Positions 1,152 through 50,530 of a stretch of DNA of 64,000 bases are shown one piece after another (the stretch's first letter is position 1; each line of letters opens with the position of its first letter). A program made the translations under genes and the position numbers. Under the pieces are notes generated by a model, which was given only the letters and a program-made list of their open reading frames with translations, ran no database searches and was not told the DNA's origin. The DNA comes from a bacterium (GTDB taxonomy: Bacteria; Patescibacteriota; Minisyncoccia; CAIUEV01). The stretch is from assembly GCA_021779915.1 (NCBI GenBank), contig JAJXZR010000015.1, positions 4,521-68,520 of the forward strand, written 5' to 3'.

Positions 1152-1375
1152 GCATCATCCTCAGCGTGTCGAGCGGGTATCTAGTTAGATTCACTAATTA
1201 TTCTAATTGTACTAATTAACCTAGTTACTCTAAACAAAATCCCAAAAACCAATTCCCAAGATTTATTTTTTATTATTTGGTGCTTGGTGCTTTTTTAGGT
1301 TAATTAGTATAATTAGGTCAATTAGAATAATTTTCTATCCTCCTGGATCCCCGGTCGACACGCCGAGGATGACAC
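1152..1375. mobile_element. MITE-like nested palindromic element, subtype A (copy 1; left terminus degenerate)
   Basis: Termini catcctcagcgtgtcgagcggg ... cctggatccccggtcgacacgccgaggatgacac. The internal AT-rich inverted repeat (ctaattaacctagttactctaa ... ttaggtcaattagaataatt) is shared with the copies at 10632, 35662 and 46711. Confidence 0.6.
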
Positions 1376-1470
1376 ACTACCAATCTTACTTTGTTTAAGA
1401 AATTATGAAATTTTGTAATTGAAAATTGTTTGTCGCCTAGTCGACCCGCCTCTGGAGGGAAAATTGAAAA

Positions 1471-1860
1471 TTAGAAATTGAAAATTTTATTTATTCCCTC
1501 CACTACCTCCTCAAACACCCTCTCTTCATCCCTCACTTCCATCGGAACTCCCACAATCACCACTTCCTCCAACTCTCCAATTTTGTGGAGTAATTTCAAA
1601 TTGAATCCCAAATCAAAATCATGAAGTGAGTGAATTCTATCAGTTTTAATCTGTAAAATATCTTTAATTAAGGTCACTTTTTCAATTCCTTCGACGGTAT
1701 CAATTATAAAAAGTTTTTTGTTTTCTGGTTTTAGATTCTCACTTGGATCGAAAATTTTAAATTCGATTTTTGGAAAAATCTTTTGAAGCCTCGGGACAAA
1801 TTTGATTGGCAGACTATCAAAAGGGAGGAGGGGATTGCCAAAAATATGGATGATGGACAT
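1471..1860 (-). CDS. Hydrogenase maturation endopeptidase (HycI/HoxW, peptidase A31-like)
   Basis: 129 aa. IIDTVEG (catalytic Asp region), HSLHDFDLGFNLKLL (conserved His) and VVIVGVPMEV match the HycI pattern IVDA..MG / HN..L / VIFLGIQP. It lies next to the [NiFe] large subunit. Confidence 0.55.
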   Translation of the reverse strand: MSIIHIFGNPLLPFDSLPIKFVPRLQKIFPKIEFKIFDPSENLKPENKKLFIIDTVEGIEKVTLIKDILQIKTDRIHSLHDFDLGFNLKLLHKIGELEEVVIVGVPMEVRDEERVFEEVVEGINKIFNF

Positions 1861-1938
1861 AATTTTTAATTTTATAATTTTGTAATTTTAAATAAATCTT
1901 AATTTTTAATTTAATTTTATAAACATTAAGACCACCTC

Positions 1939-2088
1939 GTGTCATCCCGGGCTTGACCCGGGATCCAGGAGGATAATACTAGTTTAACAAAACGTTATTT
2001 TATCTAGTTTTAACAATACACATTAAAAGAACATTCTTTCAGTCTAACACTGTTTTCCTGGATCCCGGCTCAGGGGCCGGGATGACAC
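1939..2088. mobile_element. MITE-like nested palindromic element, subtype B
   Basis: gtgtcatcccgggcttgacccgggatccaggaggataatactag ... cctggatcccggctcaggggccgggatgacac. It is related to the copies at 29373, 32001 and 50377. Confidence 0.6.
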
Positions 2089-2154
2089 AAAATCACACTT
2101 TTCTTTTCTTAAAAAATTATCATAAAAGGGTGCTTTTTTGCACCCTTTCGGAAT

Positions 2155-2451
2155 TTATGCCATTTTTTGGCATTTTTTGCTTTTCGGACAAGAAAAACCA
2201 GCTTCTTTGTTAAGTCTTCCGACTTCCCTTATAATAAAATTAATACTTCCTCTTATCCTTTGCGGTTGTTGAAGAATAGGATTTTCGTGTTTAACAATTT
2301 TTTTCATGATAACCATTAGCAATTGTTTCTCTAATTGAGCCAACTCTTCCGGTGTGTCGCTGAAATTTAAAAAGAATTTATAGCCATCCTCTTCTCTGGC
2401 TATAAAACCTTCGAAAATTTTTTCTTCCAACGGTTTTTTCAAAGAACCCAT
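2155..2451 (-). CDS. Hypothetical small protein
   Basis: 98-aa ORF followed by a hairpin (aagggtgcttttttgcaccctt) at 2130-2160. No recognisable motif. Confidence 0.4.
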   Translation of the reverse strand: MGSLKKPLEEKIFEGFIAREEDGYKFFLNFSDTPEELAQLEKQLLMVIMKKIVKHENPILQQPQRIRGSINFIIREVGRLNKEAGFSCPKSKKCQKMA

Positions 2452-2474
2452 TTATATTCTCCTTTTTTAAAGTA

Positions 2475-2693: not shown

Positions 2694-2698
2694 AACTT

Positions 2699-5666: not shown

Positions 5667-6839
5667 ATGAATAAGAGGAAAAAAAGAAAATGGCACAAAA
5701 ATTTTTTGAAATATATGCACCTTATAATCGAACACCCCAATTATTCCAATATGCCTGAAATTTATAAAAAAAACGGGGATATAAGATGGATTACTCCTGG
5801 GAAAAGTGCAATCGGTCAAAAAAGACTTTCTTGGTGGGATGAAAAACGCAAAGAATTAAAAATAAAAAAAGAGGAGGCTTGGATATCAAAAGTTGCCAGA
5901 GCTATTCACCCAACGGGTAAAAAACCTTGTCAGATTTGCGGTAAAGAAATGAGTTTGGATTATATTTACCCAAATAAAAGGAACGGGTTCAGCCCAGGAG
6001 CGATGAGTAATGCACCGGATCGGTTTGACGGTTACCACAGTTACAATTTATGTTGCAGAAGTGCTCATGATACTGGAAGACACAAAGCTAACCTAAACCG
6101 CTATGGAGAAGACAGGCGCGCATATGAAAATTGGTCAGACGGAGATTGGAAAGCTGCAAGTTGGCTTATGAAGGTCTTTAACAAACATGGCTTAAGTCCT
6201 GATCATATTGGGCCCATATCTTTGGGTTTTTCTCATAATCCAAACTTTAATCCACTAACTCCAGCAAAAAATTCTGCAAAAAACAATAGAATGACACTTT
6301 CTGACGTGAAAATGCTTATTTCTTTAGAAAAGGAGGGGAAAAGTGTAGTTTCCTGGCATTCAAAGTATATTTGGGACATCTTAAAAAATAAAATTAAAAC
6401 CAATGCTGACGCACTAAAGCTCAGTAAAATAATGCGTAAAAATATGCATCAAGTTTTACTGGTCTTATCCGAAATTTCAAGGCAAAGGTATAATAAATTT
6501 TTAGTAAATAATTTTTTACATCCTGAATATGCTTTTTATTCTATAGAATTTAAAAAATTTAATCCCAAAACCGGTTCTTATGGGGAAATGATAAAAACAC
6601 CTGGAAAAAAGAAACAGTACGAAAATAATGCAAAGAGGTATATCAAAATTTCCCTTGAATCATTGAAGGCATACAGAAAAGTGAAAAATCGCAACACGCA
6701 AATTATTAAATCAAAAAAAATTCAAGATATGTTAGATAAAACGATATTGTTGTTGAAAGACAAAAAAACCGATAAAGCCAAATCAAGCCTTAATAAAATT
6801 TGTTCGGAGCTAGCTAATTCATTAGCTAGGGATTTTTAA
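5667..6839 (+). CDS. Putative restriction endonuclease, HNH/beta-beta-alpha-Me type with Zn ribbon
   Basis: 390 aa. Cys pairs CQICG and CCRSAH are followed by SPDHIGPISLGFSHNPN (DH..P...G/N, HNH-like). Its 3' end is convergent with, and overlaps by 14 nt, the adjacent m5C methyltransferase gene. Confidence 0.5.
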   Translation: MNKRKKRKWHKNFLKYMHLIIEHPNYSNMPEIYKKNGDIRWITPGKSAIGQKRLSWWDEKRKELKIKKEEAWISKVARAIHPTGKKPCQICGKEMSLDYIYPNKRNGFSPGAMSNAPDRFDGYHSYNLCCRSAHDTGRHKANLNRYGEDRRAYENWSDGDWKAASWLMKVFNKHGLSPDHIGPISLGFSHNPNFNPLTPAKNSAKNNRMTLSDVKMLISLEKEGKSVVSWHSKYIWDILKNKIKTNADALKLSKIMRKNMHQVLLVLSEISRQRYNKFLVNNFLHPEYAFYSIEFKKFNPKTGSYGEMIKTPGKKKQYENNAKRYIKISLESLKAYRKVKNRNTQIIKSKKIQDMLDKTILLLKDKKTDKAKSSLNKICSELANSLARDF

Positions 6840-7956
6840 ATAAAATTGTTTCATATTTTTTTGGTGAAATTTTTCCAGCAATAAATTCTTGGTATAGGCT
6901 TTTTGATTTTATCTCTTTTTTTAGTGTGTTTTCACCCCCATTGACTTTTATGGATGGGAGATTTTCTATTGCATCTTTAACTGAAATATATTTATTTTCG
7001 TTGATAATTACTTCCTGCGGATAGCATGCTCTGGGATCTCCTCTTAAGACTCCTATTATAACAACTCTCTTCCTTTTTTGAGGAACCCCAAACTTGACTG
7101 CAAACATTTTTTTTCCCTCTATTTTATATCCGAGGTTTGAAAAACTTTCTTTTACACTATTAAAAGTTTTTCCATTATTACTTGTTAAAATACCTTCGAC
7201 ATTTTCAACTAAAATTACCTTCGGCTTTATTTTCCTTACTATTTCAACAAATTCTTTAAACAAAAAATTCCTAGGATCATCCACCAACCGCTTTCCAGCA
7301 TAGGAAAATCCCTGGCAGGGAGGACCTCCAACTATAATATCTATTTTTTTGTTTTTTATACTTTCATAAAGCTTTTCTTTGATGTCTTTTTTTGTAATAT
7401 CTCCTTCGATAAGCACTGTATTTTTGTGGTTGTTTTTATACGTTTCACATGCTGATTTAAAATTATCATTAGCAACAATAATTTTGTAACCAGCCCACTC
7501 AAAGCCCTTGCTTAAACCACCTGAACCACAAAAAAGATCGAGAACATTTTTCGTGTTAGTATATTTCTTAATTTGTTTCGCAATAAAATAAGCAAGCAAG
7601 GGTGGAACGGCGTTTCCAATTTGTTTACAAAGTGAGGTTTTTGAGCCATAGAAAATATAATCATCTGGGAATGACTGTAATCTGGCCGCCTCTCGAGCAC
7701 TTATAACCCTGTCGTCTTTTGGATGAATATACGCCCCATTTCCAGGTCTATTAAAATAGGTTGTTATTGTATAACTTGGTTTATTCCAACTTAATCGTCC
7801 ATACAGAGTTGTTCTTCCACCAGTTCTTCTTATTTGTTCAAGTCTTTTTGATGGAACATTTAAGGGAATGTTTTTCCAGTTTCCACCTTCTGGAATTGCT
7901 ACAACCATCTTTAAGTCATTTTCACTGAGTGGATAAGTTACATGATTATAAAGCAT
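6826..7956 (-). CDS. DNA (cytosine-5)-methyltransferase, circularly permuted motif order
   Basis: Motif IX (RLQSFPDDY) and X (QIGNAVPP) come near the N-terminus. They are followed by motif I (LDLFCGSGG), IV (GGPPCQGFS) and VI (LVENVEG). Confidence 0.85.
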   Translation of the reverse strand: MLYNHVTYPLSENDLKMVVAIPEGGNWKNIPLNVPSKRLEQIRRTGGRTTLYGRLSWNKPSYTITTYFNRPGNGAYIHPKDDRVISAREAARLQSFPDDYIFYGSKTSLCKQIGNAVPPLLAYFIAKQIKKYTNTKNVLDLFCGSGGLSKGFEWAGYKIIVANDNFKSACETYKNNHKNTVLIEGDITKKDIKEKLYESIKNKKIDIIVGGPPCQGFSYAGKRLVDDPRNFLFKEFVEIVRKIKPKVILVENVEGILTSNNGKTFNSVKESFSNLGYKIEGKKMFAVKFGVPQKRKRVVIIGVLRGDPRACYPQEVIINENKYISVKDAIENLPSIKVNGGENTLKKEIKSKSLYQEFIAGKISPKKYETILFKNP

Positions 7957-9811
7957 AATTCAAACTTTTATTTATAGTGCTTATCAAATTTTCCTCCTTA
8001 TATCTGCTTAGAATAAACCTTATTTCGTCTTTCTTTAAGCGATATAATTTAAAAATTTCAAGATTTAGTCTGGCGACATCATTATCGTTTTTACTTTTTC
8101 TGATTTTATCAACCAGATTTTCAATTTTAATTTTTTGATTTTCATTTGGAATAGCAATTGGTAACTCAGCGATTTCGTAATTGCTTATGTGATTGTTTGA
8201 GTTAGTTATTTTGAATCTCCAATCTAAAAGCAACGAGTTTAAAACTCCCAACATATAATCAAGGGAAATATTTTTGTTCTTAAAAAGGCTTTCTCTTTTG
8301 CAAATATAATTACAAGAATTTCCAAGTATTACATTTGCAGGAATTATCGCAAATTTTAGCCTTTTATTCCCATGAATGTTTGAAACTTGTTGACATACCA
8401 ACCGATCTTTAAACAAATGTTCTTTTTTGCCATTTAGCTTAAAAAGAAAATTTTCATCTACATACAGCCTTCCAAATTCAAAATTAAATTCAGCTATATT
8501 GATTCCTCTTAGTAAAGGATAATTAGTTTTTTGTTCAGTGATGAATGACTTGTCTAAAGTTAAGTCTAATTCCCCACGAAGATTATGAATATCTGTAAAA
8601 GATTTTACTTTTGGACAGCTATTTATCTTTTCAAGCACACTCACTCCTTTTTCATTTTCAATAATTATGGGTACTGACTCAGAAATTGCTTTTATTGTCT
8701 TTATTTTTATTTTTACACTTGTTTTCTCAAAATCCATAGCATTTATAACCTCCGGATTTATTTCTAAAATCGTACCTTTATGATTTTTATTTAAAGAGAA
8801 AAAACAAAAGGCTTGGGAAATATCTGGAAAAAATTCATTTTTTTCCGGAATTATATAAATTTTTGAAAAAGAATAATTTTCTATTATTCTTTTTCTTAAT
8901 TTTTCACCTTGACGATCGTTTAATAGCGTTATTGGTATAATTAGACCTATTTTACTATTTTTGTTTGTATAGTTTTCAATTATTTCTTCTACAAATATTT
9001 TATAGTAATTTAAAGTTCCTTCGTTATACTTATAAATATTATTTCGTTTAATAAAATCTATGAGATCTTTAATATTAATTAAACTATTTTCTTTGTTTTT
9101 TAGATATTTATTTGAATTTTCCTTTAACAATTTATAAGGTGGATTTGTTAAAACCATATCAAATCCATCTTCTACATTGAATATTTTTTTTGGATCATTT
9201 TTGTTTATTTTACCATTACTAAAACCAAAAAGAATATCGCCTGAATAAAAATTTTTTTCACTGTTCGTTACTTTAATTCTATATTTGGAGCTTACATATA
9301 GCGGAATAATTTTTTTTAACAAGATTATGGCATCATGGTCTATATCGGCACAAAAAATATTATTGACAACTTTTTGTGCTTTATCTCTATTCAAATCAGA
9401 TAAATTGTTGAAAATATAATCAATAAAAGATAGAACAAATATCCCTATTCCAACGCAAGGTTCTAAAAATTTTATATCTAAAAGATTTTTTTCTTTAATA
9501 AATTTAAAAGCTTCTTTTGTGATCTGTTTAGCGATTTCATAATCAGTGTAGTATATGCCAAAATGCTTTCTTTCGTCTGTTTTAAACATTTTTTTATTTT
9601 CTTTTTCTTTTTGATGAATCAACCCGATAAGCTGAACAACAGAAATTAAATCAATTTCATTTTTATTTATCAAATTTTTATACAAAAAGTCATCAATAAC
9701 ACTTTTGATTTGGGGCTCATCGCTCATAAAACTCAAAAGTTTGTAGGTAAGATCCTCTTTGTTTCTATATTTAACACATATAGTATTGTATATTTGAAAA
9801 ATTTTTTTCAT
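7946..9811 (-). CDS. N6-adenine DNA methyltransferase, gamma class, with C-terminal target-recognition region
   Basis: Motif X (HFGIYYTDYEIAKQI), motif I (LEPCVGIGIF) and motif IV (TNPPY). 621 aa. It overlaps the m5C methyltransferase gene by 11 nt, consistent with an operon. Confidence 0.8.
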   Translation of the reverse strand: MKKIFQIYNTICVKYRNKEDLTYKLLSFMSDEPQIKSVIDDFLYKNLINKNEIDLISVVQLIGLIHQKEKENKKMFKTDERKHFGIYYTDYEIAKQITKEAFKFIKEKNLLDIKFLEPCVGIGIFVLSFIDYIFNNLSDLNRDKAQKVVNNIFCADIDHDAIILLKKIIPLYVSSKYRIKVTNSEKNFYSGDILFGFSNGKINKNDPKKIFNVEDGFDMVLTNPPYKLLKENSNKYLKNKENSLINIKDLIDFIKRNNIYKYNEGTLNYYKIFVEEIIENYTNKNSKIGLIIPITLLNDRQGEKLRKRIIENYSFSKIYIIPEKNEFFPDISQAFCFFSLNKNHKGTILEINPEVINAMDFEKTSVKIKIKTIKAISESVPIIIENEKGVSVLEKINSCPKVKSFTDIHNLRGELDLTLDKSFITEQKTNYPLLRGINIAEFNFEFGRLYVDENFLFKLNGKKEHLFKDRLVCQQVSNIHGNKRLKFAIIPANVILGNSCNYICKRESLFKNKNISLDYMLGVLNSLLLDWRFKITNSNNHISNYEIAELPIAIPNENQKIKIENLVDKIRKSKNDNDVARLNLEIFKLYRLKKDEIRFILSRYKEENLISTINKSLNYAL

Positions 9812-10576: not shown

Positions 10577-10631
10577 TTTGGTATTTTATTGATTAAAATT
10601 CATATTTTTCCTCATTAATATTGTTTCCCTC

Positions 10632-10844
10632 TGTCATCCCGGGCTTGACCCGGGATCCAGTTAGTCTTATTAATTATTCTAATTGTTCTAATTAACCTAA
10701 TTGTTCTAAACAAAATCACAAGAACCAATTTTTTAAAAAATTTATTTATTGATACTTGGTGCTTTTTTAGAATAATTAGTATAATTAGGTCAATTAGAGT
10801 AATTTTACGTTCTCCTGGATCCCGGGTCAAGCCCGGGATGACAC
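10632..10844. mobile_element. MITE-like nested palindromic element, subtype A (copy 2)
   Basis: tgtcatcccgggcttgacccgggatccag ... cctggatcccgggtcaagcccgggatgacac. About 85% identical to copy 1, including the internal inverted repeat. Confidence 0.65.
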
Positions 10845-11038
10845 GTAATTGTTAATTTTCTCTGTTTAAAACATTATAAAATTTGTGAATTGAAAATTGT
10901 TTGTCGCCTAGTCGACCCGCCTCTGGAGGGAAAATTGGAAATTAGAAATTGAAAATTTTGTCCTGTTCAGTTGTTCAATAATTCTTACACTTTCATTAAA
11001 ATATGATAAATAAAACTCGTCAAATTTTTAAATTCCAT

Positions 11039-12873: not shown

Positions 12874-12987
12874 TTTCTTCTCCTTTTCTTTTTCTTGATA
12901 TTTTATTGAGGTTTAAAAACAAATTTTTAAAGAGCTTTCAAGCTGGCTTTCATTGTGATATAGAAATAATATAAAAGCTAACTTTTA

Positions 12988-13103
12988 ATCTAAAAATAGA
13001 ATAAAAAACCGAAGGCATTGCTTTTTAAAACTGTTGTTTTCTGATAGAAAATACCTCAGTTTTAAAAAGCAATGCCTTCGGTTTTTTATTCTATTTTTAG
13101 ATT
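12988..13103. terminator. Long perfect inverted repeat (~47-bp arms); probable bidirectional rho-independent terminator
   Basis: aatctaaaaatagaataaaaaaccgaaggcattgctttttaaaactg and its reverse complement, separated by about 24 nt. A-rich upstream and T-run downstream. Sits at the 3' end of the 13120..13878 gene. Confidence 0.5.
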
Positions 13104-13119
13104 ATTTATCAATTCAATT

Positions 13120-22378: not shown

Positions 22379-22409
22379 GTGTCATCCCGGGTCAAGCCCG
22401 GGATGACAC
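22379..22409. repeat. Solo palindromic hairpin unit of the MITE family (gtgtcatcccgggtcaagcccgggatgacac)
   Basis: A 31-bp perfect palindrome identical to the fused termini of the long elements. Confidence 0.6.
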
Positions 22410-26581: not shown

Positions 26582-26926
26582 TCACTTGCTACTCGTTCTC
26601 CATCCTGTCAACTGTTTGCTCACTCTCTCCAACTTCAAATTCAACGTGACGAACTTGTCTATATCGATCAGTTTGAGATCATTGGATAATCGCAGGAATA
26701 ATCTGATTGTTTCGACGTTTTCCCGCGCCTTTTGAATGTTTTCTTTTCTTTTTTCAAAAGAGCTGTTGGCTCGATAGATGTTCACGATCATCTCAATCAT
26801 TTCTTTCTTCATACTCTCTCCCAGGGTGAATTTGTATTCCCGAGAGAAGTTTCTGATGAATTTGAACAAATCCAGCAGAAGCTCATAACTGTCGTGGTAA
26901 ACTGGAAGATCGCTGGAAAGGGACAT
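26582..26926 (-). CDS. avd: DGR accessory variability determinant (Avd-like four-helix-bundle protein)
   Basis: 114 aa, basic, predicted all-helical. Sits between the target/VR and the TR/RT, as in canonical DGR cassettes. Confidence 0.65.
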   Translation of the reverse strand: MSLSSDLPVYHDSYELLLDLFKFIRNFSREYKFTLGESMKKEMIEMIVNIYRANSSFEKRKENIQKARENVETIRLFLRLSNDLKLIDIDKFVTLNLKLERVSKQLTGWRTSSK

Positions 26927-27007
26927 GGGGGGGAGTTACAAGTTGTAAGTAAAAAGTGGCAAGATTTTTTTCTTGCAACTTACTACTTGTAACTTGTAAC
27001 TCCCCCC
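26927..27007. repeat. GC-clamped hairpin (ggggggagttacaagttgtaag...cttgtaacttgtaactcccccc) immediately 3' of the VR
   Basis: Arms of about 35 nt built from GYWRCAAG octamers and closed by a G7/C7 clamp. Lies between the target stop (27046) and the avd start. Confidence 0.55.
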
Positions 27008-27045
27008 TCATTTTTAAAGAGTCAAAGAGTCAAAGAGTCAAAGAG

Positions 27046-29250
27046 TCAGTCCTTGAGGCAACGGACAGAAAAGCCGTACGCCTTCGAATTCAGGGTCCGA
27101 TAGACCGTGGCGTTGCTCGAATTCAGATCGCGATGCCATGCAGACGTACCACTGGGAGAGGAAGACCAAAAGTAGGCGTTCGTCCCGAGAAGGGCAAACG
27201 AGCCATCGGTATTGCGGTAGCCGGCTAGCAGGCCAGTAAAGTTAGAAGTTCCTCCTGACTTCAATTTGGTGCCGGCAGTGGAACAATCCCAAGTTCCGCT
27301 TCGGTTGGCATCGCAGGTTTGACCGGTGTCTTTCAAATAATTTTCCAGTTCGTACTGCTGGGCGTCGGTCGGAATATGCCAGCTCGTGGGACAGATGCCT
27401 TGAGCTCCGGGGGTTGTGGAATAGGCCATGGCTTCATCCCACTGGTAAAGGCCGCCATAGGTGTTGCAATTGTTGGTATCGTTGCTATAGCACCATTTCT
27501 CGACAGTGCCGTTGTTGGTTGGCATCGTAGAACCACTGGCAAGCATCGTGCCGAGTTTAAGGTTTTGTTTCATCCAGCATTGGTTGCCGATAAGGACAGT
27601 GTCATAGACATTGTTTTCGGCGTCCAACACCTGACTGACACCGCAAACAAAATCAGAGACCACGCAGTTGCCTGATCCATCGCATCGTTTGTTGAAACCG
27701 CAAGTTTGGGAATTGTTGATGTTGGTCCAGTCGCCCACTTGACCGGAAGACGAGACGGTTTTTTGCTGGCAATAATAGTCGCCCACTCGGCCATCGCCAT
27801 TTCTGAAGTTGGTAAAGTTGCTGGCATTGACCAATGTCGCACTAATATTGGTAGCGTTGACCGTAGTCGCACCAACGTTTCCGGTCGTCGTGATATTGCC
27901 GCTTCCCAAACTGAAATTGCCCGATCCGTCCGTGACGGGAATGATTGAATTTCCGCCAGTAGCAGAAGTCTCTTTATCATCCAATTTATCGGCATTGAGG
28001 TTGGTAACTTTGGTGGTGGAAGCGACGGTGAGCGGGGAAGTACCGGTTGCCACAGTTGAAGTCAGGGTGGAAGCGGAAACAGAACTGGCAGCGATGGAAC
28101 CGGTGGTGGAAATGGAAATGTCAGATTTTAAGTCTGATCCGGTGATGGTTCCGTCCGCAATGGAAGCGGAATTGACGCTGGCAGTTTCAATGATGCCAGA
28201 AGTGTTGACGGAAAAAACTGAATTGTCACTGTTATTGGTAATTTTGAGTGGTGAAGCCGATTGGGAAGAAGCCATCTTGAGAATGGTTACCACGGTTGGA
28301 GCCTGGTAGGCAACGGTTTGACTGGAAGCTGGATCGGTGTGGATGGTTTCATTGGTGAGTTCTGAGATAGCCGTTTGGGTGTTAGTAGAAGCAATTTGAG
28401 TGGTCGGCGTGAAAGAAATGGCAGTAGCGGGATGAGAGGAAGCTGCATCTCGGTTTTGGAGATCATTATGATTGACGGTTGCTACATTAGCCACTTTATG
28501 CCAGGTGTTGTCAGAGTTGTCACAGCGGTAAATCCAGTTTTCATCTTTCACAAGCCGGGATTGCCCGTCAGATCCACTGTTACAATCCGGCAAATCGGAA
28601 TGGGAAGTGACCGGATCTTTCCATTTGAGATTGTTGATGTTGGTGGAAAGCTGGTTGTCCACATAGGCTTTGTTAGCGGCGTCAGTGTCGCTGGTGGGAG
28701 TTGCGATGTTGGTGATTTTGTTGGTTTCCAGGGATAAGGGTTTGGAGAGTTTAAAATTCTCACTGCCTTTGTCATAGGTAAGGGAACGGGCAGAGGAACC
28801 GAAAAGAAGGTTGATGTCACTTCCTGTTTGCCCAATAGTGAAGGTGTTTTGGTTGGTACCGGAATCAGTGTTCTGGTCATGAATTTGGGAGATGTTTTTG
28901 TTGCCTAAAGCGATGTTTGAATCGTTATTGTCTACTAGTTCTCCCAGTTTGTTTTTTTCGGTGTTGGTGGGATAATCGGGAATGTTAAGTTTACTTCTAT
29001 CAATACTGGCATCTGAGGCAATATCTTCGTTTTTAATCGTTCCGTTTTTGATTTTGTCTCCGGTGATAAGATCGTCCGCAATCACCCTGAGGTTTGCGAT
29101 GGCTCCGTCCTTGAGTTGCGCATCCCCAATGGACTGAGTAACAATCCTAATTTTCTGTTTAACAGCCTTTCTAAGGGAAGCATTGGAAAAAGAAGTGACG
29201 GCTAGAACGGTGAGGAGGGAAATGAGGAAGGTGGTTTTTGGTTTGGACAT
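27046..29250 (-). CDS. DGR target protein: secreted Ser/Thr-rich protein with C-terminal FISUMP-like (C-type-lectin fold) variable domain
   Basis: Signal peptide MSKPKTTFLISLLTVLAVTSFSNASL. C-terminal NQCWMKQNL...YGGLYQWDEA...CPTSWHIPT...LLAGYRNTDGSF..FWSSS...GFSVRCLKD, with the VR covering the last ~60 codons. GC-richer than flanking DNA. Overlapping ORFs in other frames are rejected. Confidence 0.85.
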   Translation of the reverse strand: MSKPKTTFLISLLTVLAVTSFSNASLRKAVKQKIRIVTQSIGDAQLKDGAIANLRVIADDLITGDKIKNGTIKNEDIASDASIDRSKLNIPDYPTNTEKNKLGELVDNNDSNIALGNKNISQIHDQNTDSGTNQNTFTIGQTGSDINLLFGSSARSLTYDKGSENFKLSKPLSLETNKITNIATPTSDTDAANKAYVDNQLSTNINNLKWKDPVTSHSDLPDCNSGSDGQSRLVKDENWIYRCDNSDNTWHKVANVATVNHNDLQNRDAASSHPATAISFTPTTQIASTNTQTAISELTNETIHTDPASSQTVAYQAPTVVTILKMASSQSASPLKITNNSDNSVFSVNTSGIIETASVNSASIADGTITGSDLKSDISISTTGSIAASSVSASTLTSTVATGTSPLTVASTTKVTNLNADKLDDKETSATGGNSIIPVTDGSGNFSLGSGNITTTGNVGATTVNATNISATLVNASNFTNFRNGDGRVGDYYCQQKTVSSSGQVGDWTNINNSQTCGFNKRCDGSGNCVVSDFVCGVSQVLDAENNVYDTVLIGNQCWMKQNLKLGTMLASGSTMPTNNGTVEKWCYSNDTNNCNTYGGLYQWDEAMAYSTTPGAQGICPTSWHIPTDAQQYELENYLKDTGQTCDANRSGTWDCSTAGTKLKSGGTSNFTGLLAGYRNTDGSFALLGTNAYFWSSSPSGTSAWHRDLNSSNATVYRTLNSKAYGFSVRCLKD
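27047..27229 (-). other. DGR variable repeat (VR) at the 3' end of the target gene
   Basis: The TR-encoded Asn positions are replaced by Tyr, Thr, Tyr, Asp, His, Tyr, Leu and Tyr. Non-A differences are all synonymous, except in the extreme 3' (IMH-like) end. Confidence 0.85.
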
Positions 29251-29372
29251 GGGTTAGTTTAAAATTTCCAATTTCTAATTTTCAATTTTTTCGCCCGAGG
29301 CGAGTCGCCTATGGAGACAAACAATTTTCAATGACAGAATAATTCAATACTTCAAGTAATATCCGACTTATG

Positions 29373-29537
29373 TGTCATCCTCGGCGTGTCGACCGGGGAT
29401 CCAGGAGGATAATATTAGTCTAATAAAATGTCGGCTTGTTTAGTTTTCTGTAAATGCACATAGAAATAACACTCTATTAGTCTAACCTGGATTCCCGCCG
29501 GAGTTTATCCTCGTGAAAACGGGGACAGGAATGACAC
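29373..29537. mobile_element. MITE-like element, subtype B (right terminus degenerate)
   Basis: gtgtcatcctcggcgtgtcgaccggggatccaggaggataatattag ... cctggattcccgccgg...aatgacac. Preceded by a CAATTTTC block (29263-29340). Confidence 0.55.
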
Positions 29538-30313: not shown

Positions 30314-30585
30314 TTACAAGTTACAAGCTACAAGCCACAAGCTACAAGCTACAAGCTACAAGCTACAAGCTGCAAGAAGACCCTTGCTACTTGCTACTTG
30401 CTACTTGCTACTTGCTACTTGCTACTTGCTACTTGCTACTATTTTAAATTAAAAATTGGGGTTGTCAAAAAAACGATAAGTTTAGTATCAAGTAAAAAGT
30501 TACAAGAAGAAAGTAGCAAGTTACAGGTAACAAGTTACAAGAAAATTCTTACCACTTGCAACTTGCCACTTTTTACTTGCTACTT
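30314..30585. repeat. Large octamer tandem-repeat arrays (GCTACAAG x ~8; CTTGCTAC x ~9; then mixed GTWRCAAG units)
   Basis: ttacaagttacaagctacaag...ctacaagctgcaag / cttgctacttgctac... Same family as 25933-26105 and 26927-27007. Confidence 0.6.
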
Positions 30586-31845: not shown

Positions 31846-32000
31846 TTAAGTTTAATTTGAAATTCTGATTACGTAGAATTAGATTACCTTTTTTTGGTTT
31901 TGACTAGGAAAATTAAGAAAATTTTCAATTTCTAATTTTCAATTTTCAAACAATTTTCAATTTATTAATTTCCTAATTTTATAAACAATACTATTCCAGT

Positions 32001-32152
32001 GTGTCATCCCGGGCTTGACCCGGGATCCAGGAGGATAATCTTAGCTTAATAAAATCTTAATTTGTCTAGTTTTTTAGCAATACGCATTAAAATAACATTC
32101 TGTTAGTCTAATTTTGTTTCCTGGATCCCGGCTCGGGGGCCGGGATGACACA
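32001..32152. mobile_element. MITE-like element, subtype B
   Basis: gtgtcatcccgggcttgacccgggatccaggaggataatcttagc ... cctggatcccggctcgggggccgggatgacac. Flanked on both sides by CAATTTTC/GAAAATTG blocks. Confidence 0.65.
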
Positions 32153-32233
32153 CAAGACGGATATTGTTTGAAACATTGAATCATTCCATCATTGAAAATT
32201 GTTTGAAAATTGTGAATTGAAAATTGAAAATTT

Positions 32234-35617: not shown

Positions 35618-35661
35618 AGGATTAGCATAGCACGAAAAAACAAGAAATGTTCATACCACAA

Positions 35662-35883
35662 TATCATCCCGGGTTTGACCCGGGATCCAGAAGGATATAA
35701 AATTGCTCTAATTAACCTAATTATACTAATTAACCTAAAAAAGCACCAAATACCAAACAATAAAAAAATAAATCTTAGAAATTAGTTTTTGGGATTTTGT
35801 TTAGAATAATTAGGTCAATTAGAGTAATTAGAATAATTAATGAGTCTAACCTGGATCCCCGGTCGACACGCCGGGGATGACAC
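35662..35883. mobile_element. MITE-like element, subtype A (copy 3)
   Basis: atcatcccgggtttgacccgggatccag ... cctggatccccggtcgacacgccggggatgacac. The internal inverted repeat is identical in design to the copies at 1152, 10632 and 46711. Confidence 0.65.
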
Positions 35884-35944
35884 GAGAGAAGCGAATTTTA
35901 ATCTTTTTTTATTTGAAAATTGGAAATTGGAAATTCTATCTACT

Positions 35945-40886: not shown

Positions 40887-40940
40887 TTGGTTATGGTTAA
40901 TTGATTAATTTTCAATTTCCAATTTTTAAACAAAAAATAC

Positions 40941-41038
40941 GTGTCATCCTCGGCGTGTCGACCGGGGATCCAGAAAAGTAATATTTTATTAGTCTAATAT
41001 AATTCTCCTGGATCCTCGCTTTCGCAAAGATGACACAC
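40941..41038. mobile_element. MITE-like element, subtype C (short, ~98 bp)
   Basis: gtgtcatcctcggcgtgtcgaccggggatccagaaaagtaatattttattagtctaatataattctcctggatcctcgctttcgcaaagatgacacac. Confidence 0.65.
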
Positions 41039-41108
41039 TAGAAGATATTGTTTATCTAATTTTTAAATTAAGAAATTGAAAATTTATTGAAAATTGAAAA
41101 TTGGTCAT

Positions 41109-42326
41109 TTATTCATATCTTAACGCCTCGATCGGGCTTAGGTTTGCAGCACGTCTAGCTGGATAGAAGCCGAAAATAATTCCCACTCCCGCTGAAACTC
41201 CAAAAGCAAGAAGAACTGATGACAAGGAAACCTCTGTATTAAGACTGAAAAAGTCTTTTGCCCCTATGGAAGCCAGCCATCCCAAAACCACCCCCACTCC
41301 TCCTCCTAAAAAAGTGAGTACCACCGCCTCGGAAAGAAATTGCAAATTGATATAGATTTTTTTAATCCCAACTGCTTTTCGAAGGCCTATCTCTCGGGTT
41401 CTCTCCGTAACAGTCGTAAGCATCATATTCATAATCCCAATCCCTCCCACTAAAAGAGAAATTCCGGCAATAGAGGATAATAGTATTGTGAAAGTTCCCG
41501 TGATGCTGGAAGCGGTCGCTATAATATCCGTTTGGTTCATCAAATTAAAATCCGCCTGAGTAGGGTCGCTTATTTTGTGGCGCTTTAGAAGCAAGTCGGT
41601 AATATCCTGTTGCACTTGACCCATTGAAGATTGACTTTGAGCTGAAACACTGATAGTCGTAACAAAGTTATCCCCCGAGAGGAAGTGTTGAGCAGAGGTA
41701 ATGGGTACATAGATAGAATTATCCGGGTTAGTAAACCCTGAGCCACCCTTGGACTGCGCAACTCCAATCACTTGAAAATCAATGCCCTTAATCCGAATGT
41801 TTGATCCGATAGGGTTGGCATCCGTACCAAAAAGATCATCTCTAGCCGATGGACCAAGCACCGCCACCTTTGCCGAACTTTTTATTTGTTGATCCGTCAC
41901 AAAAGTACCGCTATCCATTTTAATGTTACGCACATCCAGATAGGCGGGGGTCGTCCCAATTACCTGGGTGTTAGTGTTGTTTCCTTTAGCTGTAATTTGA
42001 TAGCGCCTGGAAACTTCTGGAGCCACATTGGAAACACCATCCACTTGACTGGCTATGGCATCAGCGTCTTCTATAGTCAAAGTTTGAGCACTTCCTCTCC
42101 CGCTGCTTACCGGTCCGGCACCTCGCTGAGCCCCTGGAGAAATAATAATAAGATTTGATCCTATTGACTGGATACTGCTTTGAATAGTAGCTTGGGCTCC
42201 CTGCCCAATGGAAACCATAGTAATCACCGAAGCAATCCCGATCACAATACCCAAAATTGTCAAGCTGGATCGAGCAATATTCCCCGCAAGCGACCAAATT
42301 GTTTCTCTAAAAAGATCGAGGAACAT
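41109..42326 (-). CDS. MacB/FtsX-family ABC transporter permease
   Basis: N-terminal TM, MacB-like periplasmic domain and C-terminal FtsX 3-TM bundle. In an operon with the ATPase and adaptor genes. Confidence 0.85.
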   Translation of the reverse strand: MFLDLFRETIWSLAGNIARSSLTILGIVIGIASVITMVSIGQGAQATIQSSIQSIGSNLIIISPGAQRGAGPVSSGRGSAQTLTIEDADAIASQVDGVSNVAPEVSRRYQITAKGNNTNTQVIGTTPAYLDVRNIKMDSGTFVTDQQIKSSAKVAVLGPSARDDLFGTDANPIGSNIRIKGIDFQVIGVAQSKGGSGFTNPDNSIYVPITSAQHFLSGDNFVTTISVSAQSQSSMGQVQQDITDLLLKRHKISDPTQADFNLMNQTDIIATASSITGTFTILLSSIAGISLLVGGIGIMNMMLTTVTERTREIGLRKAVGIKKIYINLQFLSEAVVLTFLGGGVGVVLGWLASIGAKDFFSLNTEVSLSSVLLAFGVSAGVGIIFGFYPARRAANLSPIEALRYE

Positions 42327-42395
42327 AAATTAATTTAATTTTCAAACAATTTTTAATTGATTAATTTTACAATTAGATAAACAATATCTTCTAGT

Positions 42396-42491
42396 GTGTC
42401 ATCCTTGCGAAAGCGAGGATCCAGGAGAATTATATTAGACTAATAAAATATTACTTTCCTGGATCCCCGGTCGACACGCCGAGGATGACAC
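42396..42491. mobile_element. MITE-like element, subtype C, inverted copy
   Basis: Exact reverse complement (few mismatches) of 40941-41038. The adjacent about 80 bp (aattagataaacaatatcttctag / ctagaagatattgtttatctaatt) is also mirrored. Confidence 0.65.
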
Positions 42492-42558
42492 ATATTTTTT
42501 GTTTAAAACATTTGAAAATTAATCAATTAAAAATTGTTTGAAAATTGGAAATTGGAAA

Positions 42559-43245
42559 TTATTTTTTCTTATTTTTCCTATCGCTCTCAATTTTCCCGTC
42601 TCTAATTGAAATTATTCTTTCGGCGTAGTCAGCCACTTCGTCTTCGTGAGTGATGATTACTATGGTATGACCTCTATCATGCAATTCTTGAAAATATTCC
42701 ATAACAAGCTTGCTGGTTTTTGAATCGAGATTTCCCGTAGGTTCGTCTGCCAGTAATATTGAAGGGTTGTTGATGAGAGCTCTGGCAATTGCCACTCTTT
42801 GCATCTGACCTCCAGAAAGTTGATTGGAAAGATTGTAAAATTTACTTTCTTCCATTCCCGCGTATTTAAGGGCTTCTCGTGCCCGAGTTTCCCGCTCTTT
42901 TATCGGAACGCCTGAGTAAAGTAGTGGTAACATAACATTTCGAAGAACCGTCGTTCTTTTTAGCAAATTGAAAGACTGAAAAACAAAACCGATTTTATCT
43001 TTGCGAAGCTCAGACAATTCATTTTCCTTAAGCTTTGAAACTTCCTTTCCATCCAAAAAATACTCTCCACTAGTGGGATTGTCCAAAGCTCCTATAATGT
43101 GCATCAATGTTGACTTTCCAGAACCACTGGGACCAATAATCGAAACAAATTCTCCTTTTTCAACAAAAAAAGTCACATTATTAAGCGCCACTGTCTCAAC
43201 ATCTCCATTTTTGTAAATTTTAGTCAGATTTCGGCAATCGATCAT
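42559..43245 (-). CDS. ABC transporter ATP-binding protein (MacB-type ATPase)
   Basis: GPSGSGKST, LSGGQMQRVAIARAL, LLADEPTGNLD. Confidence 0.9.
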   Translation of the reverse strand: MIDCRNLTKIYKNGDVETVALNNVTFFVEKGEFVSIIGPSGSGKSTLMHIIGALDNPTSGEYFLDGKEVSKLKENELSELRKDKIGFVFQSFNLLKRTTVLRNVMLPLLYSGVPIKERETRAREALKYAGMEESKFYNLSNQLSGGQMQRVAIARALINNPSILLADEPTGNLDSKTSKLVMEYFQELHDRGHTIVIITHEDEVADYAERIISIRDGKIESDRKNKKK

Positions 43246-43252
43246 TAAATCA

Positions 43253-43361
43253 GTTTATCAAGTTTATAAAGTTATAAAGTTCATAAAGTAAAGATTCAGA
43301 TAAACATTAATTAGAAAAATCAAATCCGATCAACTTTATAAACTTTATGAACTTGATAAAC
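43253..43361. repeat. Inverted repeat built from TTTATAAAG units in the macA-macB intergenic region
   Basis: gtttatcaagtttataaagttataaagttcataaagtaaag ... ctttataaactttatgaacttgataaac. A related motif lies at 44740-44790. Confidence 0.5.
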
Positions 43362-43375
43362 TTTTTAACTAATTG

Positions 43376-44587: not shown

Positions 44588-44962
44588 TTATGGTTAATAT
44601 TTTTAGATTAAACGACACAAACACAAAGTTATGGTAACAGAAAAATAACCATTCTTCCAAGTCCCCTCAAGTGGTTTCTTGCGGGAACTGTTCGAGCAAA
44701 AAAACAAATTCCACTGCAAGAAACCAATTGAAAGGACTTCACTAGTCCATAAAGTTAGAAAGTTTATAAAGTTTATAAAGTAAATGTTTTCCAACACACT
44801 ACTATATTGAGCTTCTTGCATCCCGAGCCTTTCTTGTCATCCCGAGCTTGTCGAGGGATCCCTCGGCTTCGCTCGGGATGACAACTTCACTCAAAGCAAA
44901 AGTAACAATTATAATGCTCGACTTGACTCAGGACACATACTAAATTAACTAATCTACTAACC

Positions 44963-45985: not shown

Positions 45986-46118
45986 AAATGACGAATTACT
46001 AATGACGAATGTCGAATCAATGACGAAATTCAAAAATCAAAATATTTTAATCTTCGGATCCTAGATTTGATTCGACATTCGTCATTAGTAATTCGTCATT
46101 TATTCGTCATTCATCATT
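45986..46118. repeat. AATGACGAA-unit inverted repeat between the sigma and anti-sigma genes
   Basis: aatgacgaattactaatgacgaatgtcgaatcaatgacgaa ... ttgattcgacattcgtcattagtaattcgtcatttattcgtcatt. Same family as 51979-52124. Confidence 0.55.
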
Positions 46119-46710: not shown

Positions 46711-46929
46711 GTGTCATCCCCGGCGTGTCGACCGGGGATCCAGGAGAGTGGAAAATTACTCTAATTAACCTAATTATACTAATTGACCTAAAAAAGCACC
46801 AAATACCAATAAATAAATTTTTTTAAATTGGTTCTTGGGATTTTGTTTAGAATAATTAGGTTAATTAGAGTAATTAGAATAATTGGTGAGACTAACCTGG
46901 ATCCCCTGTCGACACGCCGGGGATGACAC
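46711..46929. mobile_element. MITE-like element, subtype A (copy 4)
   Basis: gtgtcatccccggcgtgtcgaccggggatccaggagagtg ... cctggatcccctgtcgacacgccggggatgacac. Confidence 0.65.
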
Positions 46930-48482: not shown

Positions 48483-48511
48483 GTGTCATCCCGGGCTTGA
48501 CCCGGGATGAC
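48481..48511. repeat. Solo palindromic hairpin unit of the MITE family (gtgtcatcccgggcttgacccgggatgacac)
   Basis: Perfect 31-bp palindrome between the MFS and HlyD genes. Confidence 0.6.
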
Positions 48512-48535
48512 ACAGGACGCAGGCGTTGCTCAAAA

Positions 48536-49213
48536 TTAGTCCTTATACACCCAATTCTTGGTCGACATTCCATTCTTAAGCTCTGGATAAGACAAAGTGT
48601 CGAAGCGGATTTTGACGTCAAATTGGTTCTCTTGGCGTTGATCGGAAATGTTGAACACTACGTCAGATTGTCTCGATGTAGCCCCGACTTCATCTACAAT
48701 TCCAACGTACTGTTTTCCTGGGAAAGCATCTACCGTAAAAAAAGCTTTCTGCCCAACCTTAATCTCGTTGAGACCTTTGTCTTCTTCTATTTGCGCATCA
48801 ACTCTTAAATCTTTTGGGTCAATACAAGTTATTACCGTTTCTCCGGGAGCAAAAATCTTCCCAACGCTATTATCCACTTTAACCACAATTCCAGCTTTTT
48901 TCGCTTTAACTAGCCCGTTTCCCACCTGCGCTACTGTTTCATTTTCCGTGACAGAGTCCCCCTCTTTCACAAAAACCTTTTCCAACTTGCCGGAATCAGT
49001 GGAAGACAAATCAATCATTGTAGCCATCACCACTCCTTTATCAATATAAACCTGGTTAGAAGTGGCATATAAATACACCAAGGCGACTATCCCGGCAACA
49101 GCAAACAAGACTATAGCGAGTCTCATCAACAAATTACGATTTTTTGGTTTTTCTAAATCTTCTATAATCTCTTCCTCCTGTTTGGAAGTATGTTTTGAAG
49201 GATTTTTTGCCAT
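48536..49213 (-). CDS. HlyD-family secretion/adaptor protein (EmrA-like, short)
   Basis: N-terminal TM, then biotin-lipoyl-like beta-sandwich segments. Confidence 0.65.
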   Translation of the reverse strand: MAKNPSKHTSKQEEEIIEDLEKPKNRNLLMRLAIVLFAVAGIVALVYLYATSNQVYIDKGVVMATMIDLSSTDSGKLEKVFVKEGDSVTENETVAQVGNGLVKAKKAGIVVKVDNSVGKIFAPGETVITCIDPKDLRVDAQIEEDKGLNEIKVGQKAFFTVDAFPGKQYVGIVDEVGATSRQSDVVFNISDQRQENQFDVKIRFDTLSYPELKNGMSTKNWVYKD

Positions 49214-49226
49214 AATAATTCAAAAA

Positions 49227-50303
49227 TTAAAATTTATTTGCTAAGACAAGTATGTTTTCGCCTTGAGACAATCCCGATATTACTTCAACCATTTGGTGAT
49301 CACCATAAATCCCAAGATTTACCTCCGTCTTTTCGAACTTTCCACTATTGTCTTTGTAAACATAATTTTTATCATTTTCTCTAAAAACAGCACTTACTGG
49401 AATCAACAAAACATTGTTCTTGTTATCGCCAGAAGCTTTTATATTTACATCCATCCCCGAACGAAGATCCAAATTCTTATTATCAAACTCCAAAGTGACT
49501 TTGTATTCTGAGACACTGTTTCCTGTTTTTTCCGCCGGATCAATAGAATTAACTTTTGCTTCAATTTGATTTGATCCTAGAGCATCAAAAGAAATTTTGG
49601 CTATTTCTCCCACTGAAATTTTTTCTAGATCTAATTGAGAAACCTCCGCCTCAATTTTGAAGTCATTGTCACTGATTAAAGTGATGATAGGAGTTCCCAC
49701 CGATGCCACCTCGCCAACTTTACTGTCCTGCCACGATATCACGCCAGAGAAGGGAGCTCTGATTATCGTTTGGTCGATTTGGTTCTGGATGTTTTCCAAG
49801 TTAGTTTCGGCTGCTTTAATCTGATACTCCTGGGCATCGATCGCCTCTTTACTTAGCTTAATTTGCTGGTCTTGAATTTTTTTGTCAGTCGATTTGACCG
49901 TGGCATCATTTTTCATTCCTTTCCTCTTTAATTCTGCCTGCTTTTGAGTTTTTTCCAGCTGATCAAGATACTCTTTGGCACTGAAAACTCCAAACTCAGC
50001 CTGTTTGTACTGGTATGCTAAATCAGAATTATCGACTTGCGCCAGTTCATCGCCTTTTTGTACCTTATCACCCGTTTGATAATTCAACTTTATAATCTGC
50101 CCCCCCACCTGAAAACCAAGATTGGCCGTATCTTTGGGAACGATTTTCCCAGAAAAACTGAGGGATCCATTTATATTTCCTCTCTCCACTGCCATACTGG
50201 AGAAAACCGGTCGCAAGGAAAGTCTTTGGTAGGTAACATAGGAAGTTACTGCACCAGCCAAAACAATCAAAACAACGATGGTCCAAAAAGTTTTTTTATT
50301 CAT
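49227..50303 (-). CDS. HlyD-family efflux adaptor subunit
   Basis: N-terminal TM, coiled-coil segment, beta-barrel C-terminus. Confidence 0.7.
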   Translation of the reverse strand: MNKKTFWTIVVLIVLAGAVTSYVTYQRLSLRPVFSSMAVERGNINGSLSFSGKIVPKDTANLGFQVGGQIIKLNYQTGDKVQKGDELAQVDNSDLAYQYKQAEFGVFSAKEYLDQLEKTQKQAELKRKGMKNDATVKSTDKKIQDQQIKLSKEAIDAQEYQIKAAETNLENIQNQIDQTIIRAPFSGVISWQDSKVGEVASVGTPIITLISDNDFKIEAEVSQLDLEKISVGEIAKISFDALGSNQIEAKVNSIDPAEKTGNSVSEYKVTLEFDNKNLDLRSGMDVNIKASGDNKNNVLLIPVSAVFRENDKNYVYKDNSGKFEKTEVNLGIYGDHQMVEVISGLSQGENILVLANKF

Positions 50304-50376
50304 TGTGATTAAGTTAAAAAGGTTGAAAGAAAATTAGACTTGTATTCTTCACGTCTCTTGCGTTCCGCTTTTTCCT

Positions 50377-50530
50377 GTGCCATCCTCGGCGTGTCGACCG
50401 GGGATCCAGGAGGGTAGTATTAATCTAATAGAATGTTATTATGTTTAGTTTATTAACGATACGCACTAGGCGATAATTCTATCAGTCTAATCCTATTTCC
50501 TGGATCCCCGCTCGGGGGTGGGGATGACAC
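50377..50530. mobile_element. MITE-like element, subtype B
   Basis: gtgccatcctcggcgtgtcgaccggggatccaggagggtagtattaatc ... cctggatccccgctcgggggtggggatgacac. Confidence 0.6.

Follow-up and report, generated by a model that had tools for sequence, protein, structure and literature searches.

What are the palindromic repeats that recur through the gaps between genes in a Patescibacteria genome, and to what kind of system do they belong? The question is raised by a 64,000-nucleotide (nt) stretch of DNA, here called the window (positions 4,521 to 68,520 of contig JAJXZR010000015.1, assembly GCA_021779915.1; Patescibacteriota, Minisyncoccia, CAIUEV01), for which an initial annotation described nested palindromic elements and labelled them miniature inverted-repeat transposable elements (MITEs). 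The answer that is favoured here is that the repeats are probably head-to-head dimers of repetitive extragenic palindromic (REP) hairpins with a CGTC/TGTC tag, that they fall within the Ssn-related motif (SRM) family, and that they serve as sites for an Ssn-type nuclease of the GIY-YIG class. That family includes dRS3 and NTS of Neisseria, RPE-4 and RPE-6 of Rickettsia, and the SRMs.

Inventory and anatomy of the repeats

The terminus pattern GTGTCATCCYSGGC, allowing up to two mismatches, has 21 occurrences in the window as against 0.42 expected from shuffles. In total, the window holds 13 elements (Table 1), i.e. 10 two-ended long elements, one spacer-less pair of units and two 31-nt solos, which together make up 2.8 % of its length. 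The 11 long copies first reported correspond to the 10 long elements and the short pair, and their three subtypes stand where they were placed, with four copies of type A (214-225 nt), four of type B (150-165 nt) and two of type C (96-97 nt); of the two solo palindromes, the first was correctly located, but the second starts at 48483 and not at 48481. A scan for strictly defined units gives 18 in the window, and approximately 24-26 are recognized by eye. One more head-to-head dimer was observed at 12112-12340 of L213, an 8.5 kb piece of this contig located upstream of the window, where it lies between the NiFe hydrogenase small- and large-subunit genes. Three independent assemblies (GCA_021833695.1, to whose contig JAKBET010000001.1 the window maps, GCA_027352005.1 and ENA ERZ27236874) agree with the window at 99.99-100 % identity across overlaps of 7.8-12.6 kb, and since the stretch that they have in common includes A1 and B1, the repeats are, where this is checkable, not artefacts of assembly. 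The closest named homologs of PheS encoded on this contig (64-69 % identity) belong exclusively to Patescibacteria, Paceibacterota and Falkowbacteria, which places the host in the candidate phyla radiation (CPR).

Table 1. Positions of the repeat elements and of other features of the window, with free energies (dG) and z-scores of folding where available
Feature	Position	Strand	Description	Fold
A1	1152-1376		head-to-head dimer; ~160-nt AT-rich palindromic spacer; left unit degenerate	dG -49, z -12
A2	10631-10844		head-to-head dimer; short hairpin H1 (ATCCCGGG-CTTGA-CCCGGGAT) in both units	
A3	35661-35883		head-to-head dimer, H1 + H2; left tag TATC	
A4	46711-46929		head-to-head dimer, H2 + H2; 17-18 nt to the gene on either side	z -16.7
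B1	1939-2088		head-to-head heterodimer, H1 + H3; ~90-nt spacer; sub-threshold match to Rfam WsnRNA46 on both strands	
B2	29372-29536		dimer; right unit a long composite with ATTCC...GGAAT arms	
B3	32001-32151		head-to-head heterodimer, H1 + H3	
B4	50377-50530		head-to-head heterodimer, H2 + H3-like hairpin; left tag TGCC	
C1	40941-41037		dimer, H2 + GAAA-loop hairpin H4; type B minus a 57-nt internal spacer stretch	
C2	42396-42491		copy of C1 in inverse orientation; lies between the genes of the ABC ATPase and the MacB permease	
Spacer-less unit pair	44834-44884		central GGGATCCC common to both units	z -7.7
Solo	22379-22409		31 nt; TGTC tag at either end, 13-bp stem, CCAG tail absent	
Solo	48483-48513		31 nt; structure as in the solo at 22379, loop reversed in orientation	
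AT-rich module with (GAAAATT)n	1386-1488	+	flanks A1	
Related modules	10857-10959, ~29260-29371 (-), 31913-31990 (-), 32152-32233, 35884-35944			
Further related modules	40907-40940 (-), 41038-41123, 42337-42395 (-), 42492-42560			
GC-rich core	1433-1459	+	TCGCCTAGTCGACCCGCCTCTGGAGGG, 27 nt; also at 10904-10930 and, diverged, at ~29290-29317 (-)	
Long heptamer hairpins	25942-26101, 30315-30440, 30484-30585		inverted arrays (GTTGCAA)n/(TTGCTAC)n and (CAAGCTA)n/(CTTGCTA)n	
Heptamer palindromes	45987-46118, 51980-52128		(AATGACG)n...(CGTCATT)n	
Inverted 9-mer arrays	43252-43368, 44749-44781		(AGTTTATAA)n/(AACTTTATA)n, in gaps around the HlyD gene	
Long near-perfect hairpins	12986-13104, 55656-55770, 57036-57149		intergenic; arms 42-55 nt, 89-98 % complementary	
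Type IIS endonuclease	5667-6839	+	Alw26I/Eco31I/Esp3I family	
C5 cytosine methylase	6826-7956	-		
Eco57I-type methylase	7946-9811	-		
Reverse transcriptase of retroelement	24718-25971	-		
bAvd accessory gene of retroelement	26582-26926	-		
Target gene of retroelement	27046-29250	-	734 aa; C-terminal Fib_succ_major domain	

The units follow a single plan, consisting of an unpaired (G)TGTC tag, an 8-bp stem that starts with AT (ATCCnnnn/nnnnGGAT) and includes some G-T pairs, a loop, and an unpaired CCAG(G) tail. Within dimers, two units stand face-to-face, tags on the outside, on either side of a conserved AT-rich spacer. Of the 22 dimer half-units, 19 have the TGTC tag, the exceptions being the degenerate left end of A1 (GCATCATCC...CTAG), TATC at the left of A3 and TGCC at the left of B4; the short pair has it in both of its units, and each solo has it at both ends. 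The stem is followed by CCAG in all dimer half-units but one (21 of 22). The proposal that all copies share a terminus is upheld insofar as alignments that include the flanks show identity bounded exactly by (G)TGTCATCC and GGATGACA(C), but some ends are non-canonical, namely the left ends of A1, A3 and B4, the right end of B2 and the inner hairpins of B and C, which are unlike the outer ones. That the termini are themselves hairpins, as first described, is borne out by the 8-bp stems and by the folding of all 13 elements as hairpins with DNA parameters (z -2.8 to -16.7). At least four types of hairpin occur among the units, including H1 (CCGGG-CTTGA-CCCGG, with a 5-nt loop), H2 (CYCGG-CGTGTCGA-CCGGGG, with an 8-nt loop and, at nine units, the commonest), H3 (CCGGC-CCYKGA-GCCGG, with a loop of ~6 nt) and H4 (YTTGC-GAAA-GCGAGG, with a 4-nt loop). 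The same spacer is found with differing combinations of these hairpins, those of the A family being H2/H2, H1/H1, H1/H2 and H2/H2, and heterodimers predominate among the dimers of the window.

The spacers of all three sizes are variants within a single family. Types B and C align as a single family in which C is B without 57 internal spacer nt, a clean deletion, while the A spacer is a palindrome made of inverted 9-mer arrays, and a subterminal TTAGNCTAA is common to all spacers. Each solo consists of the outer half of one unit fused to the outer half of the other (tag-stem-loop-stem-tag), which is exactly what recombination or slippage between a dimer's two self-complementary hairpins would yield. 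Given a 57-nt deletion leading from B to C and a collapse of hairpins leading to the solos, growth of the elements by nested insertion, as it had been read from their structure, is not needed, and no pair of empty and filled sites that would display an insertion was found; that part of the annotation is given up.

The repeat family and its GIY-YIG partner

A scan of other genomes for GTGTCATCC-N10-24-GGATCCAGG, with one genome taken per species, gave at least 114 loci, which are distributed among Alphaproteobacteria, Gammaproteobacteria, Nitrospirales, Planctomycetota, Acidobacteriota, Fibrobacter, many Patescibacteria and others, in agreement with the suggestion that the terminal motif is a widespread palindromic repeat giving rise to spurious peptides in annotations. 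Among the matches listed, 85 of 120 have middles with at least four nested pairs (22 different stems), as against 2.7 on average in shuffled middles, and the combination of conserved flanks with 22 paired stem sequences indicates that the stem co-varies in a compensatory manner. In approximately 48 of the loci listed, there is a partner end (CTGGAT(T)CC-hairpin-GGA(A)TGACA) 57-330 nt further on, and many of these partner ends are ATTCCC-N8-GGGAAT, the consensus of Neisseria dRS3. Chenal et al. (2025, Nat Commun 16:2388, PMC11893778) extended dRS3 to an oriented 28-nt NTS and to degenerate SRMs, and the published SRM pattern, HGTCWYN(0-2)YYVSBRHN(0-5)WNVSBRGN(0-2)RNCYNB, is matched by 11 units of the window, as against 0.10 +/- 0.30 (maximum 1) in 100 dinucleotide shuffles. 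The density of copies, which had been called exceptional, is so in relation to kin, since a comparable scan gives 18 units in 64 kb here and approximately nine in 979 kb around the MacB homologs of related metagenomic lineages, an enrichment of approximately 40-fold in this lineage; it is not so in relation to the family, for which hundreds of copies per genome are already known (PMC1797815, PMC11893778).

The gene that accompanies such units in other genomes encodes a small GIY-YIG protein, which has at least 7940 homologs, all of them PF01541 and of ~90-118 aa, and for which NCBIfam has no specific model. At locus L083, a 98-aa GIY-YIG ORF (open reading frame) lies inside a long dimer whose hairpins are identical to those of the window, and a dimer at L149, which is related to the MacB locus of the window, encloses a decayed copy; in four diverse homologs (P0070, P0029, P0075 and P0086), each gene is bracketed by units with their tags outward. 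Six of six independent loci (L083, L149, L197-L212, L203, L204) thus have the gene between two units, a layout that was found before the 2025 paper came up and that reproduces the published NTS-ssnA-NTS architecture, ssn genes being flanked by the motif in the published survey as well (PMC11893778). Based on the same study, SsnA binds the hairpin only as single-stranded DNA (ssDNA) and on one strand, does not bind RNA, cuts a few nt 5' of the tag while tolerating any loop, depends on the C after the palindrome to bind and on the three bases before it to cleave, and reduces transformation by NTS-bearing DNA in Neisseria, while Wolbachia and other Ssn homologs cut their own motifs (PMC11893778). 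Of the window's 22 dimer half-units, 19 retain the determinants for SsnA, i.e. the three nt 5' of the palindrome and the C after it.

Two further observations concern the nuclease gene in other contexts. At 564-920 of L203 (GCA_004321915.1, a Nitrospirae metagenome-assembled genome), the SRM-bracketed ssn-like gene separates cas1 from cas2 in a CRISPR adaptation module, which looks like an insertion into the operon. At 5370-5730 of L194, a more distant small GIY-YIG gene without SRMs has near-identical tRNA-like 5' fragments (GGGGGATCGTCTAATGGTAG) on both sides, which suggests that another subfamily of GIY-YIG genes is inserted in a different context.

The bracketing of a nuclease gene by matching hairpins also bears on the possibility that the elements are REPINs mobilized by RAYT, an IS200/IS605-like Y1 transposase of the HUH class, as holds for GTAG-tagged REPs. 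The logic would be the same, with inverted pairs of tagged hairpins, no target-site duplication (TSD) and recognition of hairpins in ssDNA, and the authors who defined the CGTC-REP superfamily left open whether RAYT acts upon it (Di Nocera, De Gregorio & Rocco 2013, BMC Genomics 14:522, PMC3733652). However, the tag of the window units is TGTC and not GTAG, the 56 ORFs of the window contain no Y1 transposase domain, and RAYT genes are never flanked by CGTC units in the literature (PMC3733652), whereas GIY-YIG genes are flanked at all six loci and in the published survey; this explanation is regarded as highly improbable.

The MITE label fares still worse. Classical MITEs would be deletion derivatives of an insertion sequence (IS) with a DDE transposase, moved in trans by cut-and-paste through their terminal inverted repeats, and the inverted-repeat ends TGT...ACA, which are seen in many DDE elements, the size classes with internal deletions and the sharply bounded copies at unlinked intergenic sites are all features that such an origin would produce. 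However, TSDs were sought and none was found above the random control, the best direct repeats abutting the elements being 0-3 nt long and no better than in 2000 random controls, and hairpin ends with stems that are compensatory across phyla are unexpected of a double-stranded terminal repeat bound by protein. A Pfam scan of the 56 ORFs detected no transposase, RAYT, Y1_Tnp, integrase or GIY-YIG domain in the window, in line with the original statement that the elements, being non-coding and lacking a transposase nearby, are non-autonomous. Additionally, clustering of all ORFs beside the 114 motif loci listed gave no protein family recurring in more than eight of them, no such IS is present in the window or at these loci, and Di Nocera et al. 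found no association of this family with a transposase (PMC3733652). Relatives of the MacB locus in metagenomes have short ATPase-permease gaps without an element and, at 60-76 % amino-acid identity at best, are too diverged for the mapping of junctions or TSDs. Given the lack of TSDs, the compensatory hairpin ends, the match to CGTC REPs and SRMs and the GIY-YIG partner, the label was withdrawn, and there is hardly any probability left for it.

The mechanism that is proposed instead starts from the hairpin. A unit would fold in ssDNA, whether during replication, in incoming transforming DNA or in an extruded cruciform, and a small single-domain GIY-YIG nuclease of the Ssn family (cd10448) would bind the hairpin and cut the same strand a few nt 5' of the tag; since the tags point outward, a dimer could be cleaved at both of its ends, on opposite strands. 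The dimers, which are non-coding, would then be non-autonomous relatives of the SRM-ssn-SRM unit that have multiplied and recombined in this Patescibacteria genome. Most likely, the elements are sites, themselves non-autonomous, for an ssDNA nuclease of the Ssn type whose gene lies elsewhere in the genome. We infer that this genome encodes such a cognate Ssn and that it drove the expansion, and any function of the elements for the host is likewise inferred.

A stronger version of this proposal, to which only a small probability is given, holds that SRM dimers are a true non-autonomous mobile class that is driven by a GIY-YIG ssDNA nuclease, and not by a transposase, and targeted to AT-rich palindromes. 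Ssn would nick just outside each outward tag, on opposite strands, and host repair or template switching would copy the unit into hairpin-prone sites, preferentially the apex of the AT-rich palindromes formed by heptamer arrays (see below); these arrays, including CGTCATT, which equals the tag plus the start of the stem, would be either targets or footprints of repair. CPR bacteria depend on DNA uptake, and the system could also police incoming ssDNA in them.

Several points weigh against the repeats being SRM dimers that an Ssn nuclease has multiplied. A GIY-YIG nuclease only cuts. An ssn or GIY-YIG gene was not found in the window and 16.5 kb of extra flanks (~80 kb of the genome), such that the units could be orphans, and the solos do not have the C after the palindrome that SsnA binding needs. 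Neither presence/absence polymorphism nor indel variants of the elements were seen between assemblies of the same population (overlaps of 7.8-12.6 kb), and the identities between copies, 63-94 %, speak against very recent activity. The anatomy does not fit in every respect, either. While H1 and H4, at 5 and 4 nt, have the 4-5-nt loop of CGTC REPs, the commonest loops of the window are the 8 nt of H2 and the ~6 nt of H3, and that of the right unit of B2 is much longer; furthermore, the dRS3 consensus ATTCCC-N8-GGGAAT is not matched by the window stem, ATCCC...GGGAT, ATTCC...GGAAT occurring only in the composite right unit of B2.

Genomic placement and other features of the window

In accordance with what had been reported, all 13 elements are intergenic, falling between the ORFs of a model by which 81 % of the window is covered; 12 are situated between genes on the same strand and one between a convergent pair, and no divergent gap contains any. 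This placement, which for some elements is inside an operon (C2; the dimer in the hydrogenase gap), raises the possibility that the repeats act mainly at the level of RNA, as intercistronic or 3' stem-loops that terminate or stabilize mRNA or give rise to small RNAs, the link to a nuclease being secondary. Such roles have been proposed in the REP literature (PMC3733652), and the strong folds and G-T pairs of the stems would suit them. The closest Rfam model, RF02625 WsnRNA46 (Wolbachia sRNA 46, a small RNA), has a consensus that is itself such a dimer (GUGUCAUCC...GGAUCCAG...CUGGAU...GGAUGACAC) and aligns over its full length to B1, with the same outer and inner motifs and dimer geometry. However, the match scores 36.2 and 32.9 bits on the two strands, far below the gathering threshold of 65.3, and is a resemblance and not membership; at the gathering threshold, no Rfam family falls on the elements, the only hit in the window being a tRNA. 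Moreover, the elements have a symmetric structure and are found either way round with respect to transcription, RNA is not bound by SsnA, and a role in RNA cannot explain the conservation of an unpaired tag and tail across phyla. As the principal explanation, RNA function is therefore unlikely, although it is compatible with the repeats being sites for an Ssn nuclease, the two not being mutually exclusive.

The C elements raise another possibility, as each is part, along with flanking modules, of one of two inverted arms (40924-41098 and 42334-42508) that are 175 nt long and 94 % identical and bracket the MacB/FtsX permease gene within an HlyD-ABC-permease operon. The arms are a possible substrate for inversion. 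A transposase between them (40924-42508) was considered and rejected, the enclosed ORF being the MacB/FtsX permease. In general terms, the repeats might be recombination or integration sites used by a site-specific recombinase, an IS110-type transposase or a phage integrase, with exchange or inversion of the flanked genes. The shuffling of hairpin types with respect to spacers is, like the arms around the permease, consistent with this, and dRS3 is a documented integration target of Neisseria filamentous prophages and a proposed recombinase site (PMC1797815). However, Pfam reveals no recombinase, integrase or prophage beside any copy in the window, no inverted allele of the segment between the arms was seen in the other assemblies, which likewise contain no indel variants, and the explanation would account for the use of the sites and not for their origin; it is judged quite improbable.

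The most constant neighbours of the dimers are AT-rich modules ending in (GAAAATT)n, which are found at one or both sides, in mirror orientation, of eight of the 10 dimers. The tandem blocks noted earlier near 1420, 10895 and 29290 are confirmed, but the GC-rich core enclosed by them measures 27-29 nt and not ~34. This core is present in three of the seven alignable modules, exactly between GTTTG and AAAATTG, and absent from the other four, and GTCGACC is present both in it and in the loop of H2. Heptamer arrays in general are a lineage trait, at 28 per 100 kb here versus 6.9 in relatives, where they also occur without SRMs, whereas those of the GAAAATT type are found in the window only beside dimers. 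Heptamer arrays also flank the SRM-ssn-SRM unit of L083 and lie within 300 nt of 20 of the 120 listed motif matches, in other phyla, an enrichment that is confounded by both features being intergenic.

The window contains other palindromic repeats (Table 1). The long heptamer hairpins between 25942 and 30585, which have no SRM unit inside, flank the genes of a retroelement (see below) and the gene at 30580, and there are similar arrays in related metagenome loci, e.g. L132. In the two (AATGACG)n...(CGTCATT)n palindromes, the heptamer is identical to the NTS tag followed by the beginning of the stem, and the copy at 51980-52128 has an extra central GC hairpin of ~21 nt (TGCCTGCCTGCCGGTAGGCAG) that the one at 45987-46118 does not, the two constituting a presence/absence pair. 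The inverted 9-mer arrays around the HlyD gene have the same design as the A-type spacers, while the three long near-perfect hairpins are unrelated to SRMs in sequence.

Two gene clusters complete the picture of the window. A diversity-generating retroelement occupies 24718-29250, and its template (26142-26326) and variable repeat (27045-27229) are 90 % identical, with nine of the 18 mismatches at template adenines; the element may be partly decayed, or the repeat bounds may be too wide. A type IIS restriction-modification cluster at 5667-9811, adjoined by a LexA-like gene, lies in the lowest-GC stretch of the window (26 %).

The significance of the repeats is several-fold. A conspicuous repeat class of the CPR, often annotated as spurious peptides, gains a name and a tested definition, and the SRM/CGTC-REP family, together with the decayed copy of the nuclease gene in a related contig, is extended to Patescibacteria. 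Patescibacteria are episymbionts. Their possession of these repeats hence fits the reported enrichment of SRM-rich genomes among symbionts (PMC11893778). With its spacer families, shuffled hairpins, collapsed solos and strict association with heptamer palindromes, the window offers clean material on the multiplication of repeats, and as Ssn enzymes are of practical interest as sequence-specific cutters of ssDNA, the four hairpin variants would be ready-made substrates for a new specificity.

Comparison with known repeat systems

Among the known systems, REPIN-RAYT (Bertels & Rainey 2011) has in common with the window inverted pairs of tagged hairpins that are non-autonomous, as well as a partner nuclease gene flanked by matching hairpins; it differs in its GTAG tag and in a Y1 HUH transposase that cuts and rejoins, versus a hydrolytic nuclease of the GIY-YIG class. 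In Neisseria, dRS3 elements flank RS segments of 50-150 bp in NIMEs (Bentley et al. 2007, PMC1797815; Parkhill 2000), and the likeness to the window extends to GC-rich hairpins flanking AT-richer segments, an alternating GC profile, mosaic shuffling and a wholly intergenic location; however, the elements of the window are mostly isolated dimers and not long arrays, and their units are related to dRS3 and not dRS3 themselves. The units resemble NTS and SRMs in keeping the 5' tag that gives orientation and the C after the palindrome. The paper on these motifs surveyed RefSeq reference genomes, makes no mention of Patescibacteria or CPR and does not describe spacer families or dimers as units.

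The closest likeness is to CGTC REPs, a superfamily that takes in dRS3 and RPE-4/-6 and is defined by a CGTC, TGTC or CCTC tag, a stem of 8-9 bp starting with AT, a loop of 4-5 nt and a CCA tail (PMC3733652). These REPs are mostly head-to-head dimers with conserved spacers, some of them inside longer palindromes and, in the case of CGTC-2 and CGTC-3, with heterodimers predominating, and they are without an associated transposase (PMC3733652). The window shares the TGTC tag, which is one of the listed variants, the 8-bp AT-starting stem and the CCA tail, the predominance of head-to-head dimers with conserved spacers, the heterodimers, the dimers within longer palindromes, the absence of an adjacent transposase and the placement between co-directional or convergent genes. 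It differs in having spacers of up to ~160 nt, as opposed to the usual 20-100, in the tight association of its dimers with heptamer tandem arrays, and in a host, Patescibacteria, that is outside the five listed phyla. The SRM/CGTC-REP dimers of the window are thus an already described family, and they are new for the CPR, a phylum outside the two papers that define it.

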